Positions 31,601 to 56,415 of a DNA stretch of 64,000 bases are shown in pieces. The translations under genes and the position numbers were made by a program. The stretch lies in the IMG/VR virus record IMGVR_UViG_3300008267_013251, positions 81,016-145,015 of that record; one strand, written 5' to 3'. Within the stretch, counting starts at the first letter, position 1, and the number at the start of each line of letters is the position of its first letter. Below the pieces are notes generated by a model. It was not told the origin of the DNA. It was given only the letters and a program-made list of their open reading frames with translations, and searched no databases. The stretch comes from a virus.

Positions 31601-32136
31601 TATGTTACCCGTAATTTTCGTGTTTCCTCATTGAAAAAAATCGGAGGGTCACCAAATTTCTCACGATTGCGTCTTAATGTTTCTCCCCTTTCAGGTTCAG
31701 GCACTCTTTGACATAAAAGTTGCCCTAAAAGCCAACCTTCGCAAACCTTGGTTCCTTCTTCTGTCCATATTGGATACCCACCTGACTGAGTTGGCTCCAA
31801 CCTACTTACTCTCAATAAGGAAGTAGTTCCCCCTCGACACGATGGATAAGGCTCTAATCCCTCAAGATTGCATTCTCTTGGACCAATCTCGTATAACTGA
31901 ATACATCCACAACAATTATTGTCAAAAGTTATGTCAAAACCTACACTCGTTGCATCATCACCTAATGGAAATATTTCCCATAGTTCACGGGTACCGCTGG
32001 GCACAATGTTAAGACTGGAACACGCCGGTTCATTAATAAGAGTTTCTGGATTAGGGCTATAATTTGGATTCAGTTGTGCCCGAAAAGTACGGACTTCATT
32101 AAAGAATTCTCCAAAATAAAAACCATTGCAAGCCAT
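25636..32136 (-). CDS. giant fibre/adhesin-like protein: two RCC1-repeat blocks, Pro/Ser/Thr linkers, kelch-like GYF.GG repeats
   Basis: Repeated LW.WG.N..GQLG....SSPVQ units and ~46-aa GYFAGG...D.I.Y.T units. Confidence 0.85.
29021..29190. repeat. 18-bp tandem repeat GGGCTCGGAGA(T/C)GGTGAT encoding a (Ser-Pro)n/(Thr-Pro)n linker
   Basis: About 7 near-identical units followed by PT codons. Confidence 0.9.
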
Positions 32137-32239
32137 TTTTTCTCCAATAAACCTCTTATACTATTAACTTTTCATAAATCAAAAACTCACATAATTTTTG
32201 AAATTATTTCCCAATCCAATTTTTTACCAACGCCAAATC

Positions 32240-33685
32240 CTAGTTATTAGGAGGTGCAAACTGAATCTCTCCCAATCCAGCTGTAAAACTATAACCAGCA
32301 GAAACATTTGTCCAAATTCCACCTGTAGCTAATGTTTGTACTGGAGAAAATTGAATGCCATAAGTGTTATTACCGATTTGTCCACTACTTCCTAGCCCCC
32401 ATGTCCATAAAAGGCCATCATCTGTAATACCTGCTGCATGATTACTACCCGCTGCAACCTTAGTAAAAAAACCACCAACTATATTTTGTACTGGAGAGCT
32501 TCTTGGTAATAAATCTGGGGAAGCAAGCTGTCCGAAGGTATTATTTCCAAAAGCCCATATTTTGCCATCATAATCAACGACTTGTGTGTGTGAATTTCTT
32601 GTGTCTACATAAACCCAAGATTGAGTTGCCATGACTGTTTGAACAGGGCTGCTTCTATTAACAGTATCATTTGTGCCTAGCTGTCCATATGAATTATTTC
32701 CCCATACCCATAGCTCTGCTCCTGTTGAACTATTATTTTTCAAGGCAGCAACAACGAACTTTCCGCATGCAACTTGATGCCAGTCAGTATCAGCACCAAC
32801 TTGAATAGGAGATTTTTCGTATTTTTGAGTTAATAAAGGCAACGCAAAATAACCATCATTATTATTTCCAAGCTGGCCGTATGAGTTATTTCCCCACACC
32901 CAAAGCGTCCCGTCCGTTTTTATGGCAGCAGTATTTAAATATCCACACGAAACACTAGACCAAGTTGTATCCGAACCAACCTGCGTAGGACTACTCCTCG
33001 TATCCGTATCATTCTGTCCTAAAATACCAGCTATATTATAACCCCAAGTAAAAAGTGTATTGTCGCTCTTTATTGCAGCTGTATGAAATGTTCCACAAGA
33101 TATTTCAGACCAATTATTTGCAGTTCCTATTAAAACAGGAGATGTACGAGTAATATTTGTACCATCTCCAAGCTGTCCGTTGTCATTCATCCCCCACATC
33201 CACAAATAGCCATCTGTGGTAATTGCCCCAAAATGATTTCCACCAGCAGAAATTTTAGAATAGTAAAAATTACTATCGATAGTTTGTACGGGGTAACCAT
33301 ATGATGGTGGAAATCCATATGGAAAATTAAAATTACCAAGTTGCCCATAACTGTTATCACCCCACAACCAGAGATTCTTAAATACTGCTGGAATAGGTGG
33401 CGGTATCGGGACTAAAGGAGTCGGTGTCGGAACAGGAACCGGGGCAGGTGTGGGCGTAGGCGTTGGTGTCGGCGTTGGTGTCGGCCCCGGAGGAGTCGGA
33501 GTCGGTACAGGCACAATAGGTGCTCCGGGGCTAAAAGGAGCAATTGGAGAAACGGATGGAGTCTGTGCAATTATCGTATCATCAGGTATGCGAACGCCAC
33601 CATCCTTTTTTTCGAAAAGGATGTCAGGTGTTTGAATTCCATAATGATTTATAATATCATCTTGAACTTTTCGTTTTGATGGCAT
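32240..33685 (-). CDS. RCC1-repeat beta-propeller protein with PT linker
   Basis: About 7 LW.WG.N.YGQLG...SP repeats. Confidence 0.9.
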   Translation of the reverse strand: MPSKRKVQDDIINHYGIQTPDILFEKKDGGVRIPDDTIIAQTPSVSPIAPFSPGAPIVPVPTPTPPGPTPTPTPTPTPTPAPVPVPTPTPLVPIPPPIPAVFKNLWLWGDNSYGQLGNFNFPYGFPPSYGYPVQTIDSNFYYSKISAGGNHFGAITTDGYLWMWGMNDNGQLGDGTNITRTSPVLIGTANNWSEISCGTFHTAAIKSDNTLFTWGYNIAGILGQNDTDTRSSPTQVGSDTTWSSVSCGYLNTAAIKTDGTLWVWGNNSYGQLGNNNDGYFALPLLTQKYEKSPIQVGADTDWHQVACGKFVVAALKNNSSTGAELWVWGNNSYGQLGTNDTVNRSSPVQTVMATQSWVYVDTRNSHTQVVDYDGKIWAFGNNTFGQLASPDLLPRSSPVQNIVGGFFTKVAAGSNHAAGITDDGLLWTWGLGSSGQIGNNTYGIQFSPVQTLATGGIWTNVSAGYSFTAGLGEIQFAPPNN

Positions 33686-48098: not shown

Positions 48099-48549
48099 CT
48101 TTTATATATTCTATATTTTTTTTACTATTTATATCTGTTTTTTCAAAATACTGATCTAAGTTATTTATTTTCACTATTTCCCAATGCATATCATCCTTCG
48201 GCACATATTCTTCTTTTGTATAATAAAAAATTTCAAACAAATATTCATATGTCTTTGCTATAACCATAGGTTTCGTCATACCATTGTATAAGTCCATAAA
48301 TATTTTTCTAACTAATCTTATTGCTTCTTTTCGAGGAGCTTTCCCCAACTTTGTCATCAAGGTTACAGCTTTTTTTGGCCCTATGTTTTCTAAGAACAGA
48401 GCCTCAACTATTTGTTCCTTCAAATCTCCATCTCTAAGTTCCGCTATGGCTTTATAACATGCCATAACATCGCCTTTTTGAGGCCTATGAGTCAATACAT
48501 CCTTAAAGTATTCATGAAAATTTGAATCATCAATAACAAGTTCACTCAT
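48052..48549 (-). CDS. hypothetical protein
   Basis: Coupled to the dnaE C-half stop. Confidence 0.65.
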   Translation of the reverse strand: MSELVIDDSNFHEYFKDVLTHRPQKGDVMACYKAIAELRDGDLKEQIVEALFLENIGPKKAVTLMTKLGKAPRKEAIRLVRKIFMDLYNGMTKPMVIAKTYEYLFEIFYYTKEEYVPKDDMHWEIVKINNLDQYFEKTDINSKKNIEYIKDAEDNEKCVDAICEG

Positions 48550-51073
48550 CTTTTTTACTTTCTTCTATCAATACGAGTCGATAATCCATACTTTTTTCTT
48601 TTGGGAGTTCATACCTTTTATGCCTTGGAGGAGACTTAAAGGTATAAGTCGAAAACCCATTAGATGGTGGACAAACCTGTATACTAATTAAGTTGCCTTT
48701 TTTTAATTCTGATTTAAATCTTTGGTAATCATCATCCCAAATCGTTATCCTTCCCATCTCAAAATTATCATCCATAACAGACAAGCTAGCAAAAGAGCCT
48801 TTGCCACTTTTGAACTTTTTAATATTTACTTCGAGTATCTCACAAATTACTGTTGACCATAAAACGCCTGCTTCATCTTGTAGTTTGAGATTGTTAAAGT
48901 TTTTGTTCGGCTGATAACCTGCTGCATTTCTAATACGGTTATCCCATGGATAACCATAATATGTCTCCTGAGCCAGCCTACTATTATTTAGTAAAGGCAA
49001 AACCTTCGCATCGTCAATTTTTACTTCCTCGCTGACGAATGTTTCCAAAGTTGGCTTAACAGGAGCCTTATCAGCAAATCGTTTAAGTGCTGCTTCAGCT
49101 TTTTTCTTAGCACCTGCTAACAATGAAATATATTGATCTTTATTTTCAAAATCCTTTCTTTCGATATAATCAGATAATATCTGTATATTTTTGGGTGTCG
49201 CAAGCTTTATGACATGCAGTTGCTCTGGCAATGCTTCCTTGATGACTTCGGCAAGTTTAGTCAAAGAGGCTTCAAATCTTTTTTGTCTATCCTTCACTAT
49301 CTTTTGATAATCTGCAAATAATAACCAAAATTTATAGAGTTCAACCGGATTGTTTTCCTTGAAAACTCCTAAAGGGATCAAAGCCCTTAGAACAGTTGCC
49401 TCGGTTCCAAAACGGGAAAGAAAGTCTTCAAAGCCATCGTATGGCTGGAGTTCAACAATTCGCTTGGCTTTATCCTCACCTATACCTTTGATGTTAGAAA
49501 AACCTATGTAAATCTTACCATCAAATATGCTAAATGTTTCCTTAGACAAATTAATATCTAATGGACAAACTTCAACCCCATGATTAATTGCCTCGGAGAT
49601 ATAGTCCCTTAGCTTTTCGTCATCACTTTCACATTGTAGAGTTGCTGTGTAGAATTCTAAAGGATAATGTGCTTTTAAATACAACTGCCTAGCAGAAATA
49701 TATGAATAAGCTACGGAATGGCTTAGATTAAAACCGTATTCAGCGAAAGATTGTATCTGATCAAAAAGTTTTGTTACCTCTTCTTTAGTAGTTTCCAAAA
49801 CAAGCTGGCCATTCTCAATAAACTTGTCTTTATATTTCCCAAACGCTTCTATTTTCTTTTTAGAAATAGCTTTTATAACGACATAACAATCACGAAGAGG
49901 AATCTTGCCTACAGCAGCAAGAATTTTCATAACATCCTCTTGGAAAATCATAATGCCATAAGTTTTACCTAAAATTGGTTCTATAACAGGATGCAATTTA
50001 TATTCCTGTTTGCCACGCTTTCTGAGTGTGTATGTCTCATCCATTCCTTGATTCAAAGGGCCGGGACGATACAGAGCTACAAGGTTAACTAAATCATCAA
50101 AGCAATCCATTCCACATTTTCTAGCTAATTTTCTGATACCTTCAGAGTCATACTGGAAAACACATTTAAGATCACCAGCATTAGCCATTTCCATGCATTT
50201 TGCATCATTCAAGTAAGACAAATCACTCCAATCCCATTGACCTTCTAATGCAGAAATGTTTTTCAAACTGTGCCGTTGTTTTACCATCTTTACTGTTAAT
50301 GCAATTTGCCAAAGACTACTTACAACCAACAAGTCAAATTTGATCAAGCCAACTGGGCCAAGGTCTTGACCACTCAAGCCTTCAACCCACGCAGAAACAG
50401 CTTCTCCTTCGGAGCCTTTGACCAACGGCACAAATTTATCAATGGGTTGATTGCAGAGTATCAATCCACCAGCATGTTTTCCCATGCTTCTATTGCGATG
50501 TAATAATTTTTGAACTGCTGCTGCCACATCAGGATGCTTTTGACAATATGCATTCAATTCAGGATACAACTCCAAAGCTTTCTGATAAGTTAAAGCCTCC
50601 CCCTCATCATCTTTAAGTCGCAAATTTGTTGTGATTTGAAGAATTTCTGATCTGTCAAGCCCATGAACACGGGCCATATCAATAAAAGTGCTTTTGAGTC
50701 CAAAAGTACCATAGTTTCCAATATTGCATACTTTGTCTTCGCCAAAAGTTTGAGGAGCCCAAGTATTCTTCAGATAATCACGAACTATTGGCAAATAATC
50801 TACATCAACATCTGGATATTCCCCATTTTTTGTCGATGGTTCCTCATCAAGATTTACATAATCAACAATATCAAGAAGCTTACATATTAAAAGATTGTTT
50901 TCGTTATTTGGATATTTTTTACCTTCATAAAACATTTTGATAAAATATTCTTCTAGGTCTTGAACCTCAACCTCGATTAACTCCCATTTGAGTCTTTTTT
51001 CAAAATTCTTATGAAGACACAATTCAGGATAAAGATGCTTCCTTTCAAGAAGTAGGGATTTCAATTTTTCCAT
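48542..51073 (-). CDS. dnaE: DNA polymerase III alpha, C-terminal half (palm, fingers, HhH, OB)
   Basis: PDVDVD, HAGG, GLIKFDLL, ALYRPGP, YGFN.SHSVAY and IKGIG; no PHP domain and no GRGS. Confidence 0.95.
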   Translation of the reverse strand: MEKLKSLLLERKHLYPELCLHKNFEKRLKWELIEVEVQDLEEYFIKMFYEGKKYPNNENNLLICKLLDIVDYVNLDEEPSTKNGEYPDVDVDYLPIVRDYLKNTWAPQTFGEDKVCNIGNYGTFGLKSTFIDMARVHGLDRSEILQITTNLRLKDDEGEALTYQKALELYPELNAYCQKHPDVAAAVQKLLHRNRSMGKHAGGLILCNQPIDKFVPLVKGSEGEAVSAWVEGLSGQDLGPVGLIKFDLLVVSSLWQIALTVKMVKQRHSLKNISALEGQWDWSDLSYLNDAKCMEMANAGDLKCVFQYDSEGIRKLARKCGMDCFDDLVNLVALYRPGPLNQGMDETYTLRKRGKQEYKLHPVIEPILGKTYGIMIFQEDVMKILAAVGKIPLRDCYVVIKAISKKKIEAFGKYKDKFIENGQLVLETTKEEVTKLFDQIQSFAEYGFNLSHSVAYSYISARQLYLKAHYPLEFYTATLQCESDDEKLRDYISEAINHGVEVCPLDINLSKETFSIFDGKIYIGFSNIKGIGEDKAKRIVELQPYDGFEDFLSRFGTEATVLRALIPLGVFKENNPVELYKFWLLFADYQKIVKDRQKRFEASLTKLAEVIKEALPEQLHVIKLATPKNIQILSDYIERKDFENKDQYISLLAGAKKKAEAALKRFADKAPVKPTLETFVSEEVKIDDAKVLPLLNNSRLAQETYYGYPWDNRIRNAAGYQPNKNFNNLKLQDEAGVLWSTVICEILEVNIKKFKSGKGSFASLSVMDDNFEMGRITIWDDDYQRFKSELKKGNLISIQVCPPSNGFSTYTFKSPPRHKRYELPKEKSMDYRLVLIEESKKDE

Positions 51074-51124: not shown

Positions 51125-51703
51125 ATGGCACTTACCAATTTTAGAGAATATCTGAACTCCAAAGGCAAAACAATAGAAAAAGCCGAAGATATTATGGATT
51201 TGCAAATGGATAAGTCACCAGATGCACCAGAAAAATATGCTACCCATGGGAAAAACTATGCGTTTTCGGCAGCATTAGATAGCAAGCCATTGCCGTACTC
51301 AGCCAAAACAATTGATGTAGCTCAAGGTAAGGAAGATCAAGCTGGTTTAGGTTTCTTTGGAACTCCCGGCATCGAGTACACAGACACCAGAACAAATGTT
51401 GTTAATTTTTCTGAATTGAAGGAACATTGTGGATGCGAAAGCAAAAAGGCACCATTTGTTGTTGCTTACTCATCAGGAGCATTCCATCCTGATCCAATTC
51501 AAGCAATCAAATATATTGTGTATCTGACCAATGAGAATGAAAATATTCTAAAAGCTTTGATGCACGAAGCAAGGAAAATGGGATGCCTTGAAAAGTATAC
51601 CGATTATCTAACAAGATTCCCAGAAGTATATCGAAGTCTTGGAAAGCGTTATGGCGGTGATGATGGGATTCATCACTTAGCTCATAAAATAAGTTCTATT
51701 TAA
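51125..51703 (+). CDS. hypothetical protein, probable late/virion protein
   Basis: ATAAATA and GAGG upstream; N-terminus MALTNFREYL. Confidence 0.65.
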   Translation: MALTNFREYLNSKGKTIEKAEDIMDLQMDKSPDAPEKYATHGKNYAFSAALDSKPLPYSAKTIDVAQGKEDQAGLGFFGTPGIEYTDTRTNVVNFSELKEHCGCESKKAPFVVAYSSGAFHPDPIQAIKYIVYLTNENENILKALMHEARKMGCLEKYTDYLTRFPEVYRSLGKRYGGDDGIHHLAHKISSI

Positions 51704-51965
51704 AATCATCTAAATCTATATCATCTTCGAATATTATCGGAGTATTTTCTCCAACATATGCGCCAGCTATGTTGAAATTAAAATACTCTATTGCATCCTC
51801 ATAATCCATATCATTACACAATTTTTGAAGTATCTTCTTCTTGCTGTAAACAACTGATAATTGATGAAACTTGGTCCCCGTCCCCATGATTGCATCATCG
51901 AAACCATCCATAAAAAGAACATTGCACCCGAATTCTTCACACATATTCGCAATTTTTTCTCGCAT
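51696..51965 (-). CDS. conserved small phage protein
   Basis: DGFDDAI.G...EDAIEYFNFNIAGAYVGENTP; GGAG SD. Confidence 0.75.
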   Translation of the reverse strand: MREKIANMCEEFGCNVLFMDGFDDAIMGTGTKFHQLSVVYSKKKILQKLCNDMDYEDAIEYFNFNIAGAYVGENTPIIFEDDIDLDDFK

Positions 51966-52034
51966 GTTTTGTCTCCTAAACTTAAATATAATAGATGAAG
52001 ATGAATGCAAGTCAACAGGGTGTTAAAATTTAAT

Positions 52035-52637
52035 ATGTATGAAATAGTAGTAGCCAGATTTGAAGAAGACTTGTCATGGCTTAATGGCATTAAACATAAA
52101 ATCAAAATTTATAATAAAGGTCAAAACAACATCAATCGAGATTTTATTCCTCTTGCAAATATTGGAAGAGAAGCGACCACAATTCTTTATCACATAATAA
52201 CTCAATATGACAACTTAAGTGAATACACTATTTTCTTACAGGGAAATCCATTTCAACACTATACAAAAACAAAAGAACTTTTACACGGCATACCAGAAAG
52301 CATAGAACCACTTTACAAATTCAGCGATGGCTGCTGGGCAATCGCAGATAAAATACTAAATGAAACTCAAGAGAAAATTAGTCCGATGCGAGTCTATCCA
52401 GCAGATTTTCACGACACATTTTTTAGAGTTCCAAAGAAAAATTTTCTATACGCTTCTGGAGCACAGTATATTGTTCATAAAAATAATATTCGAAACAAGC
52501 CAATCACATTCTATAAAAAAATCATGAGTTCATTTTCTTGGAAAGGACACGAACCATGGAGTATAGAAAGAGTTTGGCCTTCTATATTTGATAAAGAAAA
52601 CAAATATAAAATAAGAACAAAAGATATGTTTCTTTAA
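52035..52637 (+). CDS. DUF3431-like protein
   Basis: IVVARFEEDL.W, IYNKG, NIGREA, FLQGNPF.H, GAQY.V and ERVW. Confidence 0.8.
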   Translation: MYEIVVARFEEDLSWLNGIKHKIKIYNKGQNNINRDFIPLANIGREATTILYHIITQYDNLSEYTIFLQGNPFQHYTKTKELLHGIPESIEPLYKFSDGCWAIADKILNETQEKISPMRVYPADFHDTFFRVPKKNFLYASGAQYIVHKNNIRNKPITFYKKIMSSFSWKGHEPWSIERVWPSIFDKENKYKIRTKDMFL

Positions 52638-53476
52638 GACTGTTTTGTTCCATCATGCTCTCTGAACCATTTCGTAATAATTACCTTTTCACCACGCTCG
52701 ACAGGCATGCCCCAATGTTCTGTCCAAGGATTACCATCCCCATTTGGTAAAATGTTATTCCAGAATAAAGCGGTCCTTTTCTTGGGGGCAAAATCTATCC
52801 CGATCTTAGTAAACTTGGTATGTCCACCCGCCGTGACATCATTCAAATAAACCATAAATGTCCAAGTCCTTTGTCCCTTATCTAAATGAACTTGATTATA
52901 TGCAGAGTTTTTATCAAACCAATCATTATGTGGCTTGAACTCTTGTCCCACTTCATATAACTGTCCTTGCGGTTCTTCAGAATTCCCATAGGGAATTCTT
53001 AAAAAATCATGAACATATTTGTTCATTTCCATATTTTCTGGTGTTTCGTGCAATCTAAGATAAGAAGTTCTACTTGTTCTTACGGTGGCTTCTGCCTCTG
53101 GGTTAGTCACCAAAGACTTGGTCAAATTACCTTTGATAATTTGCACAAACCTATCACATTGCTCATCAGTAAAAAAGTCTTCGACTTCATAAAGCTCTAC
53201 ATAGTTATTATCTATTCTATGTGCTCTTGGGTTATCAGCTAAAGGCTTGTAAAGAGGGAAAATAATAGGCTTTTCATCATTATCCAAAATTTTTTGTGTT
53301 TGTCTTCTGATCAAAGTTTTAACATTGGAAGGCATGAAATTTAATTCTTTGGCTATTGCATCCCAACAGAAGCCATGATTCAGGAGAATCACGAATAGAT
53401 TCTCTTTATTCTTTTCTGCTTTCACATGATTCCAAATCCACCACTTCCAATCATCGCTAAATGTTTTAAGAAGCAT
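52634..53476 (-). CDS. prolyl 4-hydroxylase-like 2OG-Fe(II) oxygenase
   Basis: RTS, Y.VGQEFKPH.D, GQRTWT.MVYLN...GG.T.F, H...PV..GEK..ITKWFR. Confidence 0.88.
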   Translation of the reverse strand: MLLKTFSDDWKWWIWNHVKAEKNKENLFVILLNHGFCWDAIAKELNFMPSNVKTLIRRQTQKILDNDEKPIIFPLYKPLADNPRAHRIDNNYVELYEVEDFFTDEQCDRFVQIIKGNLTKSLVTNPEAEATVRTSRTSYLRLHETPENMEMNKYVHDFLRIPYGNSEEPQGQLYEVGQEFKPHNDWFDKNSAYNQVHLDKGQRTWTFMVYLNDVTAGGHTKFTKIGIDFAPKKRTALFWNNILPNGDGNPWTEHWGMPVERGEKVIITKWFREHDGTKQS

Positions 53477-53972
53477 TTGTAAATCTCCAATGATAAAATG
53501 ATTGTATTACCATTTGATGTTTTTCGCATTGCAGATCATCTCTCCAATGGTTCATCGTTGTTCCCAATATTAAAGCACCATCGCCAACTCTTGTCTCAAA
53601 TCCTTTGATGCCGTCTACAGTTTCAACATATAAAGGCCATGGCTTGTTGATATTACTGAATGTGCAAACAGTTAAAGTTATATCAAGACCTTCTCTATCT
53701 TTATGCTTTTTTAGCTTCGATCCATCATAATAAATTCTTGTATAACTGTTTTCTTCTTTGATGTTATTAAATCCAGTTGCCTGTTTAATTTGGGGAGTCA
53801 AATCATGCAAAAGCTTTTCATATAACGGAATCCTTGCTGTCCCATAACTGTTGCCATAATGTGAGTTATCGACCTCATGACTCAATCTATTCTCCATCAT
53901 CATACGGAGAGCAGCTTGATTCAATTCATCGCATTGTTTTTGATTTAAAAGCTTTTCAAAGAAAATATACAT
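53466..53972 (-). CDS. phage 2OG-Fe(II) oxygenase
   Basis: SYTRIY, LKKH.DR, WPL, GD, HWR and Q.FYHW. Confidence 0.8.
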   Translation of the reverse strand: MYIFFEKLLNQKQCDELNQAALRMMMENRLSHEVDNSHYGNSYGTARIPLYEKLLHDLTPQIKQATGFNNIKEENSYTRIYYDGSKLKKHKDREGLDITLTVCTFSNINKPWPLYVETVDGIKGFETRVGDGALILGTTMNHWRDDLQCEKHQMVIQSFYHWRFTNAS

Positions 53973-54010: not shown

Positions 54011-55432
54011 CTAATTTGAAAATTTTAACTTAATTTGTTTTCCACCTCTAGCCTCGCTCAAAAATCTTGAGAAAAGCAAACCATGTCGTATCGGATCAAC
54101 ATCGGTGACACCCAATAAATAAAGAATCAAAGACCCACCACCAGAACCTCTTCCGGGGCCAACAGCCTCCCTTCCATCTCCCCAACCCAAAAGCTCAGGA
54201 CAAACTCTTCTGGCCTCATCGGTCATCATCTTCTGGACTAGAAAGTAACTAGCAAACCCCTTTCGTGTGATTATATCAAATTCTTCCGCAACTCGTTTGC
54301 CGTATTCCCCTTGTGGCTTGATGTTTCTAAACCGCAATCCATCTGCGACAGCCTGCGCTAGAGCTTTCTTTTCTTCCTCTTGTAGTGGAAATTTTATGCT
54401 TCTGTCTAGTTCAACGCCCTTGGCTTTTTGACAAATAGCAACTGTAGTGGCCTTGGCTTCTTCAAATATTTCGAGTGGTATGACATCACTATATTTTTTT
54501 TGCCACATCTCATTAAGCTCTTCTTCTGTTTTCATCCACAAATTACTGTCTTGGAGTTCAAAAAAATCTTGATTTTCATTTTCTTCAATCATCTTTTGTA
54601 TTTCTGGCAAAGTTCTTTTTGTCTGAATCATCAGCATCAATCTTTGATAATGACTATCTTCCTGTTTGCAATAATGGCAGTCGTTAGTAAGAATAATTGG
54701 AAGATTATACTTATCTTTCATTTTCAAAATGAAAACATCATATGGTTTTTGCTTTTTGAAATCCAACATCATAATTTCTAAGTAAAACTGACCTTTGAAC
54801 ATGTTGATATATCTTACTAAAACTTCTTCAGCTGCTTCCTCCCCTTTTTTATCGAATGTTCTGCCTATTTCACTTGCATAACAGCAAGATGTAAAAATCA
54901 ATCCTTCTTTATGTTTTTGAAGCATCTCATAGTTTACACGGGGTTTCGCATAGAAACCCTTCAGAAAACCATAAGATGATAATTGAACAAGATTGGAATA
55001 ACCTTGTTTAGATGTGGCAATCGCAAGTAAGTGACTGCCTTTTACTTTGAATTCTTCAAGCTCTTCAGGACCAAGTTGGTCCATGAATTTCTTTCTACTC
55101 TCTTCATCAGGAGTAGGCTCGGAGTGCATGCGGTTGACATATAACTCACAGGCAAAAATTGCACTAAGCTTATTTTTTCCGTGTTGTTCACAAATTTGTT
55201 CACAAGCTTTTACTTGTCTGGGAACAGCACCGAGCATGCCATGATCACTTATGCAGAGAAACTGACCATGGTGGTGCCAATGCTCTGCGTATTCTTCAAC
55301 TTGGCCAAATCCATCTAAAAGACTATAGTTTTTTGCGCCCCCGGCATTAAATTATGCCGGGGGCAGTATGTCTGTGTGAAGATGTAGGTGTTCAAAACCT
55401 ACTATCTTCACACTTGACCCTTGGTTGGACAT
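54011..55432 (-). CDS. dnaE: DNA polymerase III alpha, N-terminal half (PHP domain to GRGS/palm start), interrupted by a 42-nt stop-containing insert
   Basis: ATG 55432 (or GTG 55411) gives MSNQGSSVKIVGFEHLHLHTD-[insert]-YSLLDG...ISDHG...CELY...HLL...TSCC...NDCHY...GPGRGS...DP...LLFSRFL, all in one frame with a single TAA at 55354-55352. Confidence 0.9.
55328..55369 (-). other. 42-nt hairpin insertion with in-frame stop (candidate translational bypass element)
   Basis: ATACTGCCCCCGGCATAATTTAATGCCGGGGGCGCAAAAAAC between codons GAC and TAT; 11-bp stem, 6-nt loop. Confidence 0.9.
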
Positions 55433-56415
55433 GATTTTACCTTAAAACCTTTTGATTGAAGCCAGTTTTCAAAAGCACAGGCATCATAGTTGTCATTTTT
55501 AACACAGTTCTCAACAACTGTCAATGGCTGTAAATTTTCCAAACAATTAATTAATTTAATGTCTCTAATGCCATAGTCTAAAAATGCTTTAATAGGAAAA
55601 ATATGATCAAGGTGCCATTTTTTTCCTATTAATTTATGCCAGTTTTTGTGATTAAATATGTGTTCCCGTAGTTGCACAGCGGTATAGCCCAACAATTCTT
55701 TTGTTTTTTTGTTTTTATTTATTTTTAAATATCTTATGCAAATGTTAATCATCGATCTGCATTTCTGTCTAAACAAATCATTAGTCCTTTTCTTTTCACG
55801 ATCAGATATCCATTCATAATGATGAGAACCACTTCTTCCTAACAAAGAACAAGCAGGACACCTAGGAACTTTTTGGAAATTATTTAAAGTTTTTTTATGA
55901 TTCTGTCCGCATTTACAAATAAATTCTACTGGCAGTCTTGCTTTTTTATATAAGCCAATTAATTTGCATCCTTGATCTTTGAAAAATTTTGCAACTTGAT
56001 CTTGTGATAAAGTTTGCTTCTTTGAATTTTTTATGTTACCACATTTTTTGCATCTATTACCTTTTCTAAAACTATCAAATACTATTTTAGATTTATTGCC
56101 ACACTCACAAATATAATCTAATTTAGCTCTGGCATTTATGTAATTTTCACTTAGAAGATAACAGTTCCTATCTTCAAAAAATTTTTTGACATAGTCATAT
56201 TTAAGTTTGAATTTATTTTTTAAACAATTTTTACATCTGCCTCCTTGCATAAAATTACTTAGTTTTATATAAGAAATATTTCTGCAAACACAAATATATT
56301 TTAATTTATTTTTTGCATTACAATACCTGTCCAATAATTTGCACCCAGCATCTTCAAAAACTTTGACAACAAAATCTTGATCATATTTTTTACCTTGCGC
56401 CACAACCCACCTCAA
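55408..56415 (-). CDS. free-standing HNH-type (putative homing) endonuclease with three Zn-finger repeats
   Basis: Three F...(G/N)C.L...Y..A.....IC.C....RC..C repeats plus WHLDHIFP...NLQPL...EN..K; start may be GTG 56403. Confidence 0.8.
   Translation of the reverse strand: MRWVVAQGKKYDQDFVVKVFEDAGCKLLDRYCNAKNKLKYICVCRNISYIKLSNFMQGGRCKNCLKNKFKLKYDYVKKFFEDRNCYLLSENYINARAKLDYICECGNKSKIVFDSFRKGNRCKKCGNIKNSKKQTLSQDQVAKFFKDQGCKLIGLYKKARLPVEFICKCGQNHKKTLNNFQKVPRCPACSLLGRSGSHHYEWISDREKKRTNDLFRQKCRSMINICIRYLKINKNKKTKELLGYTAVQLREHIFNHKNWHKLIGKKWHLDHIFPIKAFLDYGIRDIKLINCLENLQPLTVVENCVKNDNYDACAFENWLQSKGFKVKSCPTKGQV

Follow-up and report, generated by a model that had tools for sequence, protein, structure and literature searches.

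The window analysed here is a 64,000-nucleotide (nt) stretch of DNA, bases 81016–145015 of a 145-kb IMG/VR virus record, and the element in question is a 42-nt insert near the 5′ end of its dnaE-N gene, which encodes the N-terminal part of the alpha subunit of DNA polymerase III (Pol III). The record was rated about one-third complete by CheckV, and its source is therefore taken to be a very large uncultured phage. The gene lies on the minus strand and starts, ahead of the insert, with 14 codons termed the mini-exon: GTG(55411) AAG ATA GTA GGT TTT GAA CAC CTA CAT CTT CAC ACA GAC. From GTG 55411 the frame reads VKIVGFEHLHLHTD, then ILPPA*FNAGGAKN across the insert and then YSLLDGFGQVEEY, which starts with YSLLDG (TAT AGT CTT TTA GAT GGA) and runs to a stop at 54011. 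The start codon overlaps the TGA of an HNH endonuclease gene (GTGTGA). The dnaE-N body matched the Pfam families PHP (E 1e-26) and DNA_pol3_alpha (positions 3–98, E 8e-22). Coordinates are collected in table 1, where relatives are designated, as throughout, by the L-numbers of their loci.

Table 1. Features at the interrupted dnaE-N locus (window coordinates).
Feature	Position	Strand	Description
Coding gap	55328..55369	minus	42 nt: 5-nt spacer ATACT, 11-bp GC-rich hairpin, 6-nt loop, 9-nt A-rich tail GCAAAAAAC
Gap hairpin, 5′ arm	55364-55354	minus	GCCCCCGGCAT
Gap hairpin, loop	55353-55348	minus	AATTTA
Gap hairpin, 3′ arm	55347-55337	minus	ATGCCGGGGGC
In-frame TAA	55352..55354	minus	stem–loop junction; present in the window, L121, L084 and L085
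GAC	55370..55372	minus	candidate take-off codon; last codon of the mini-exon
AAC	55328..55330	minus	candidate landing triplet, placed from the frame of YSLLDG; matches GAC at 2/3 positions
TAT	55325..55327	minus	candidate resume codon; first codon 3′ of the gap
GCA	55334..55336	minus	alternative landing codon; 21-nt hop from GCA 55357-55355 over TAA; in frame in the window and L121
5′ stem-loop	55370..55418	minus	5′ arm 55418-55397, loop 55396-55390, 3′ arm 55389-55370
dnaE-N mini-exon	55370..55411	minus	14 codons, (M)KIVGFEHLHLHTD; PHP motif I (HxH)
dnaE-N body	54011..55327	minus	438 aa; rest of the PHP domain and first third of the Pol III alpha palm/NTPase
dnaE-N, whole	54011-55411	minus	N part of the divided DnaE
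HNH homing-type endonuclease gene, free-standing	55408..56415	minus	335 aa; treble-clef zinc-finger repeats; phrog_559 'HNH endonuclease', E 6e-24
dnaE-C	48542-51073		843 aa; rest of the polymerase

Reading of the minus strand bore out the original prediction on the position of the insert between HTD and YSLLDG, on its 11-bp stem with a stop codon in frame, on the in-frame recurrence after the hairpin of the GCA that precedes the stop, and on a GC content (52%, with 36% for the window) that stands out in an AT-rich genome. The AC direct repeat said to bound the insert exists; it is only 2 nt long and carries no weight. The 112-nt region folded at −46.7 kcal/mol, against −22.1 ± 3.2 kcal/mol in shuffles (z = −7.6), and none of 200 shuffles folded as well. 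Ribosomes reading into the hairpin would end at the TAA.

Two general explanations for such a hairpin were rejected. No second copy was found in the 145-kb record, and pattern matches in viral contigs comprised cases at the dnaE site and unrelated terminator-like hairpins only; the hairpin is thus single-copy in the record and otherwise present at this dnaE site only in the collections searched, which argues against a dispersed mobile repeat. An intrinsic terminator was likewise rejected, as no terminator-like site was found on either strand; the hairpin is followed on the sense strand by GCAAAAAAC and not by a U-tract.

Gap classes and selection on their flanks

Related dnaE-N genes were collected by a protein-guided scan of viral contigs (63 loci), and DNA-pattern scans of viral and metagenome contigs added more. 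After identical sequences had been collapsed, 55 distinct 5′ ends were left, 34 of them gapped and 21 gapless. Gapless alleles encode G-F-E-H-L-H-L-H-(T/S)-D-(F/Y)-S-x-L-D-G in 48 nt, and the other 34 are interrupted inside these codons, the gaps and inserts of all relatives falling within one eight-codon stretch. No near-identical cultured phage was found in GenBank, where the best relative is an uncultured 595-kb phage with 50% identity and a gapless gene.

Three classes of gap were distinguished. Class (a) consists of 5-, 6-, 7- and 8-nt gaps directly after the last His of HLHLH, which start with TAG, once with TGA (TAGTTAC, TAGTTTAC, TAGCTAAC, TGAAT and TAGCTT). Class (b) is a 6-nt gap between SVL and DG that reads CTT-TAA-CTT, the classic arrangement, in L038, CTT-TAA-CTA in L042 and CTC-TAA-CTT in L043. 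Class (c) consists of hairpin gaps of 40, 41, 42 and 47 nt after (T/S)D. The hairpin of the window is found in a 42-nt gap in the window and L121 and in a 40-nt gap in L084 and L085; L068 (40 nt) has a 10-bp variant of it and L074 (41 nt) another, in which a G-U pair and a loop of 5 nt are found. In the L019 group (40 nt, TAG in the 5′ arm) and in L120 (47 nt, an 18-bp stem starting with TGA directly after GAC) the stems are unrelated in sequence. The hairpins of L068 and L074 contain no zero-frame stop.

Presence and absence of the insert and compensatory changes in its stem, both to be looked for among relatives according to the original prediction, were found on alignment. A C-G pair is replaced by U-A in L068 and a U-A pair by G-C in L074, and the hairpins of relatives folded at z values of −6 to −8, so that structure rather than sequence is kept. 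Gap lengths cover all three reading frames. The inserts of the window and L084 are identical through GCAA and continue with AAAAAC and GAA, respectively (42 versus 40 nt), and stems of 10 or 11 bp and loops of 5 or 6 nt vary without frame constraint. Among near-identical gene bodies, those of L039 and L111 differ in gap length (5 and 8 nt), and those of L098 and L016 differ in whether a gap is present at all.

In a metagenomic contig a GC-rich palindrome might be suspected of being an assembly or sequencing artefact, or the gene might be dead. The hairpin of the window recurs in three independent assemblies (L121, L084 and L085), with variants in about 10 more, so the insert is not an assembly artefact; the frames of dnaE-N and dnaE-C are both intact and full length and the flanks of the gap are conserved in protein, in line with the earlier statement that the gene is not decaying. 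Explanations of this kind are considered extremely improbable.

The same codons also harbour introns. In L045–L047 and L057 a group I intron lies between FSL and LDG (Rfam RF00028, 91–102 bits), without an open reading frame (ORF) in L045:2767-2992 and L057:2769-2996; such introns are inserts that are removed before the protein is made. As hairpin gaps, mini-gaps and introns all occur there, the eight codons constitute a hot spot for inserts. A dnaE-N of 840 aa with a LAGLIDADG-domain intein in the NTPase region was found at L104:1807-4329, and intein-like C-terminal motifs (…VHNC, …VSNC) in L051 and L061, so that dnaE of this phage group gathers several kinds of selfish element. A full-length tmRNA gene was recorded on a related phage contig (L045:6703-7061, Rfam RF00023, 112 bits).

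The introns raise the question of whether the 42 nt might be cut out of the mRNA as well, by an unknown endonuclease-and-ligase pathway or a small ribozyme, followed by ordinary translation. The insert is a compact structured RNA at a site that takes group I introns in L045 and L057, and RNA ligases are often encoded by large phages. A search of Rfam with the insert at E values up to 10, however, returned chance-level matches to small RNAs and microRNAs only, and a self-splicing intron or known ribozyme was rejected for want of a match to a catalytic RNA family. The identical hairpins of the window and L084 would require 3′ boundaries 2 nt apart, and excision of 5–8-nt gaps is without precedent; the stop codon that leads each of these gaps points to the ribosome. 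Excision of RNA is regarded as very unlikely.

Selection on the coding sequence was then followed across the gap. Among the gapped alleles GFEHLHLH is invariant in protein except for two Phe-to-Tyr changes, and each of its codons occurs in 2–5 synonymous forms, including the codons in the loop of the 5′ stem described below. Relaxed selection on the upstream HLHLH codons, which by the original prediction would have spoken against a hop, was not seen: the mini-exon is near-invariant and these codons change only synonymously. The mini-exon aligns to the N-terminal HxH strand (PHP motif I) of Taq Pol III alpha (2hpi); in 3e0d, a deposited variant of the 2hpi structure, Asn replaces the Asp of the LLDG motif. 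The stretch (T/S)D(F/Y)SxLDG beyond the gap is conserved, and a conserved start codon is missing there; an ATG, GTG or TTG is usually first met 24–34 codons downstream. In the window the first in-frame ATG, GTG or TTG is ATG 55237, beyond the LDG and DH metal-ligand motifs, and the 30 codons from the gap to this ATG are 83–90% identical in protein to gapless relatives. Apart from those truncated by contig ends, the dnaE-N bodies are all full length (428–463 aa, or about 840 aa with an intein). Because the flanks are conserved, the gap lengths frame-free, a restart codon missing and the bodies full length, both pieces appear to be translated as parts of one protein.

A sigma-70-like sequence, TTCACA-18-CATAAT, spans the junction of mini-exon and insert (window 55351–55380, minus strand). 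It is not followed by an in-frame start in the window, and the ATG of the hairpin, which lies in the 3′ arm in L084 and L085, is in frame in these two relatives alone. An internal promoter with restart was rejected, as it needs a start codon and the hairpin ATG is out of frame in the window.

In a wider explanation no joined protein arises: translation ends inside the gap, and a DnaE-N that lacks the HxH strand is produced by downstream restart or through an internal promoter, or else a peptide of 14–19 residues acts in trans. On this view the mini-exon would be either a leader ORF or a relic of recent origin. In its favour are the position of the break, only 14 codons from the start of the gene, the promoter-like sequence, the in-frame ATG of L084 and L085 and the fact that E. 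coli-type Pol III alpha works without PHP metal ligands. Against this, a conserved in-frame start after the gap is missing, ATG 55237 lies past the LDG and DH ligands, and the codons ahead of it are as conserved as stated above. The mini-exon changes synonymously, bar the two Phe-to-Tyr changes, in 34 diverged alleles, even in the unpaired loop of the 5′ stem. This explanation is considered unlikely.

The remainder of the polymerase is encoded 2.9 kb downstream of dnaE-N, DnaE being divided inside the palm domain. The genes that separate the halves (51125–53972) encode a 2OG-Fe(II) oxygenase, a ferrochelatase-like PHROG protein and a DUF3431 protein. In all relatives the N part measures about 430–460 aa, and the split is therefore taken to be ancestral to the phage group. 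A second DnaE-like gene of 571 aa is present in the same genome outside the window (L126:1501-3216; G000:C1, ~31890–33605); this paralogue consists of the palm/NTPase and finger domains only, with no PHP, HhH or OB domains.

The 5′ stem-loop and the HNH cassette

Stems of 12–20 bp were predicted at the 5′ end of dnaE-N in 34 of 34 gapped alleles, and no gapless allele has one in comparable form. In every gapped allele the start-codon region supplies the 5′ arm, and the 3′ arm, made up of the H-L-H(-L-H-T-D) codons, ends at most 2–3 nt from the first base of the gap. In the predicted fold of the window (16–19 bp) the 5′ arm spans the HNH stop and the dnaE start, and the 3′ arm is formed by the H-L-H-L-H-T-D codons and ends in GAC, which contributes the last three pairs. 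The perfect 17-bp stem of L019 takes in GAU and two gap bases, and the 14-bp stem of L091 ends with CAU, the candidate take-off codon in that allele. As this geometry is constant across gap classes that interrupt different codons, take-off is placed at the last codon before the gap.

Pairing was compared in alleles whose gap follows HLHLH immediately (20 distinct 5′ ends, which give 14 distinct rows in the aligned stretch); 97% of the cells of this alignment are paired. The core pairs GTG(A/G)AGAT/ATCT(T/C)CAC were complete (8/8) in 19 of 20 alleles and reduced to five in L095, compared with a mean of 4.7/8 in gapless alleles. Two pairs covary: G-C is replaced by A-U where the start codon pairs with a His third position, and A-U by G-C or G-U where codon 2 pairs with a Leu third position, a site at which no A-C mismatch was found. 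The covariation score was reached by none of 500 shuffles. The mean minimum free energy was −10.7 kcal/mol in the 34 gapped and −3.5 kcal/mol in the 21 gapless alleles (Mann–Whitney p = 2e-7).

In a wider fold of the window (55300–55428, minus strand) the 5′ stem-loop and the gap hairpin are closed into a three-way junction by GGUCAA/UUGGCC. A comparable closing helix was predicted in L120, not in L074 or L019, and the junction was not used as support. A conserved 3′ stem-loop after the landing site, of the kind that forms the forward-slippage barrier in gene 60 of phage T4, was not found; this region folded at −9.0 kcal/mol in gapped versus −12.8 kcal/mol in gapless alleles, the gapped ones being, if anything, less structured.

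An HNH homologue or its C-terminal remnant lies immediately upstream of dnaE-N in 13 of the 34 gapped alleles versus 1 of the 21 gapless ones (Fisher p = 0.009). All three gap classes are represented among the former, and an HNH homologue is also found upstream in the intron-bearing L057. The sole gapless allele with an HNH gene is L002, the closest relative of the window (90% protein identity); its motif (L002:1269-1316) is mutated to HLHCHSH-YSLLDG, with three residue changes in the most conserved stretch, which may represent escape of the target site by substitution.

The dnaE-N tree shows gap classes and gapless alleles interleaved, and the 5′ cassettes and gene bodies give different relationships. 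The window shares 94–96% identity with L121, L084 and L085 in the 5′ cassette and 70–76% in the gene body; with L068 the values are 86% and 65%. L068 itself is 52% identical to the 8-nt-gap alleles L110 and L100 in the cassette and 87% in the gene body. Such a mosaic is what homing with co-conversion, or strong selection acting on the cassette, would be expected to produce. The target of the HNH enzyme is probably the conserved DNA for HLHLHTD(F/Y)SLLDG, a site that the insert would disrupt.

Predicted bypass of the insert and competing explanations

From the comparison of relatives we consider it probable that the 42 nt are a nuclease-immunity insert that is bypassed by ribosomes, analogous, not homologous, to the T4 gene 60/MobA system. 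The hop over an untranslated gap put forward in the original prediction is thus favoured, through the frame-free gap lengths, the selection on both flanks, the missing start codon after the gap, the 5′ stem-loop and the adjacent HNH gene. The gap would most likely have arrived as the immunity insert of a homing-endonuclease cassette, and the gene would have stayed functional through bypass.

The following course of events is proposed. Initiation at GTG 55411 would probably be coupled to termination of the HNH frame, and the ribosome would read through the 14 codons until GAC occupies the P site, where the stable hairpin 5 nt downstream would hinder further advance. Behind the ribosome the free 5′ arm of the 5′ stem-loop would zip with the 3′ arm as the latter emerges from the exit channel; given the shortness of the mini-ORF, no second ribosome should yet be on the start region. 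Through zipping, the mRNA would be drawn forward and the take-off codon detached from peptidyl-tRNA(Asp), one more base pair forming per base of forward slippage. The same role has been proposed for the 5′ stem-loop of gene 60 (Manning & Atkins 10.1101/2022.08.31.505936; 10.1101/2024.12.09.627546). Having slid over the hairpin, the ribosome would take up translation again in the A-rich 3′ flank, landing most likely on AAC and continuing at TAT 55327, with HTD-YSLLDG as the product. A failed bypass would lead to termination at the TAA, at the cost of a 19-residue peptide.

Across the family the A site would be blocked by the stop codon in the short gaps and in L120, and by a hairpin 4–6 nt downstream in the other hairpin gaps, and resumption would take place in an A/U-rich 3′ flank. 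In the short gaps the stop codon follows directly after the take-off codon, and in 11 of 14 gap types the first NAY downstream of the His codon would serve as the landing triplet. In the hairpin gaps AAC, GAA or TTT would be the landing triplet after GAY, so that pairing on landing could be at best partial. A hungry A-site codon was rejected as the trigger, since ATA, which follows GAC in the window, is common in the phage (34% of Ile codons).

Two hops had been proposed for the window. The precise 42-nt bypass from GAC to AAC fits the geometry of the whole family better and is favoured. A 21-nt hop from the GCA before TAA to the GCA behind the hairpin, with HTD-ILPPA-KN-YSLLDG as the product, is possible and would work for the window and L121 only. 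In L084 and L085 this GCA is out of frame despite the identical hairpin, and the hop would need a GCG landing 2 nt earlier; the other hairpin types have no equivalent codon pair. The GGGGG regarded as a possible Shine–Dalgarno-like element lies 10 nt before TAT, but inside the stem; in the L019 group GGAG is found 2 nt before the resume codon.

More generally, these genes may, tentatively, carry a portable recoding module that needs no nascent-peptide signal and in which zipping of the 5′ stem-loop drives the ribosome. Its 5′ arm would be the ribosome-binding and start region and its 3′ arm would end at the take-off codon, the A site being blocked by a stop codon or hairpin, and the ribosome would cross 5–47 nt without a matched landing codon. 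Homing endonucleases of huge phages would then use hairpin gaps, mini-gaps and introns interchangeably at one dnaE site.

Several points weigh against bypass. The take-off and landing triplets are unmatched (GAC versus AAC in the window, GAA or TTT in relatives), and in the window the stop is not adjacent to GAC, TAA following five codons later. The nascent chain is only 14 residues long, which makes a nascent-peptide signal of the gene 60 type unlikely. With a 16-bp stem covering the start codon, initiation should be lowered. The covariation counts of the 5′ stem are inflated by the kinship of the gapped alleles. The DnaE paralogue without a PHP domain weakens, without removing, the argument that dnaE-N is essential. 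Finally, this loop is one residue longer in a distant gapless relative, so that small insertions might be tolerated, and the insert of the window is in frame, so that readthrough is compatible with the window taken alone.

The last two points also favour an explanation in which the insert is partly or fully translated by other kinds of recoding, namely UAA readthrough in the window, giving a 14-residue loop, and +1, −1 or +2 frameshifts in relatives, for example at an A6 run or at CAY-UAG. In L068 (40 nt) and L074 (41 nt) the frame could be corrected if tRNA(Lys) slipped by +1 or −1 on AAAAAA, and the 7-nt gaps read AGY TAY (Ser-Tyr) in the +1 frame with apparently synonymous variation. A different event would, however, be required for each relative (readthrough, +1, −1 or +2, and readthrough plus +1 in L084 and L085), even between near-identical gene bodies, and L084 and L085 have no A6 run. 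Plain UAA readthrough, an alternative named at the outset, cannot account for the relatives with 40, 41 and 47 nt. Stem and loop sizes shift by 1–2 nt without frame constraint, no suppressor tRNA was found in the record, which has tRNA-Ser(GCU) only, and a 5′ stem that ends exactly at the gap is left unexplained. Such recoding would seem quite unlikely, and bypass remains the preferred reading.

Comparison with known bypass and homing systems

Programmed translational bypassing is among the rarest of decoding events. The secure natural cases are T4 gene 60 with its homologues and the byps of yeast mitochondria, with one partly tested case in a Streptomyces phage (10.1101/2022.08.31.505936; PMC10732093), and bypass of the gene 60 type is known only in topoisomerase genes (Manning & Atkins 2022, bioRxiv 10.1101/2022.08.31.505936, which cites Bonocora et al. 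2011). No report of bypass in dnaE was found in the literature. If the reading of the dnaE gaps as bypassed inserts is true, an independent, non-homologous family exists in a different essential gene and gene 60 is not a one-off. Its dozens of natural variants, 5–47 nt long and 12–20 codons from the start, would form a mutational series for what sliding of the ribosome needs, with a 5′ stem, an A-site block and a landing context as the candidate minimal set. Homing endonucleases would use bypass elements as protective inserts beyond introns and inteins. Gene callers truncate gapped dnaE genes, and the PHP HxH motif is then lost from the annotation.

The closest parallel is T4 gene 60/MobA, with its 50-nt gap. 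In both systems a gap of 40–50 nt with a stable hairpin and a stop lies in an essential phage replication gene; a separate 5′ stem-loop precedes the take-off site and the gap is A/U-rich in its 3′ portion. A free-standing HNH endonuclease adjoins, the target of which the insert would disrupt, and the nuclease is often decayed or lost while the gap persists. Of the dnaE gaps, the hairpin form of the window is the member closest in size to gene 60. The two differ in the gene that is interrupted, dnaE here and a topoisomerase there, and no sequence similarity to the gene 60 cassette was seen in a comparison from published descriptions and by inspection. Take-off in dnaE comes after only 14 codons, with no similarity to the gene 60 peptide by inspection, and the take-off codon precedes the hairpin by 5 nt instead of lying in its 5′ arm; the stem of L120 takes in TGA and begins immediately 3′ of GAC. 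The window has no stop adjacent to the take-off codon, as L120 (GAC TGA) and all 5–8-nt gaps have, and its take-off and landing triplets are unmatched, the matched GCA/GCA pair being out of frame in the 40-nt relatives. The 5′ stem-loop of dnaE contains the start codon and ends at the take-off codon, and the dnaE family includes 5–8-nt versions. By this analogy the dnaE element would work like gene 60 but outside that family.

In the terminase gene of Streptomyces phage Hau3, 10-nt inserts led by UUA have been proposed to be bypassed (Antonov et al. 2023, PMC10732093). Hau3 and dnaE share short non-coding inserts in an essential phage gene. In Hau3 a rare sense codon linked to the cell cycle of the host acts as the trigger, and no homing endonuclease takes part, whereas the dnaE triggers would be stop codons or a hairpin. 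The byps of Magnusiomyces capitatus mitochondria are bypassed GC-cluster inserts of 27–55 nt in 81 copies per mitochondrial genome (10.1101/2022.08.31.505936). They resemble the dnaE insert as GC-rich, hairpin-forming sequences of similar length that interrupt essential genes in an AT-rich genome, and differ in being dispersed, whereas the dnaE hairpin is confined to its one site in the collections searched.

Low-level stop hops such as CUU-UAG-CUA (+6), unprogrammed and inefficient, were reportedly observed in E. coli by Weiss et al. in 1987. The CTT-TAA-CTT, CTT-TAA-CTA and CTC-TAA-CTT gaps of L038, L042 and L043 are of the same form, and the 5–8-nt gaps start with a stop after a His codon; the dnaE gaps are, in contrast, fixed in an essential gene and accompanied by a dedicated 5′ stem-loop. 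For homing, the nearest example is the collaboration of a free-standing endonuclease, F-CphI, with an ORF-less group I intron in cyanophage psbA, said to have been described by Zeng, Bonocora & Shub in 2009. The combination recurs in L057, which has an HNH homologue upstream of dnaE together with a group I intron, likewise ORF-less, in the same motif; in the window the protective insert would be a 42-nt hairpin and not an intron.

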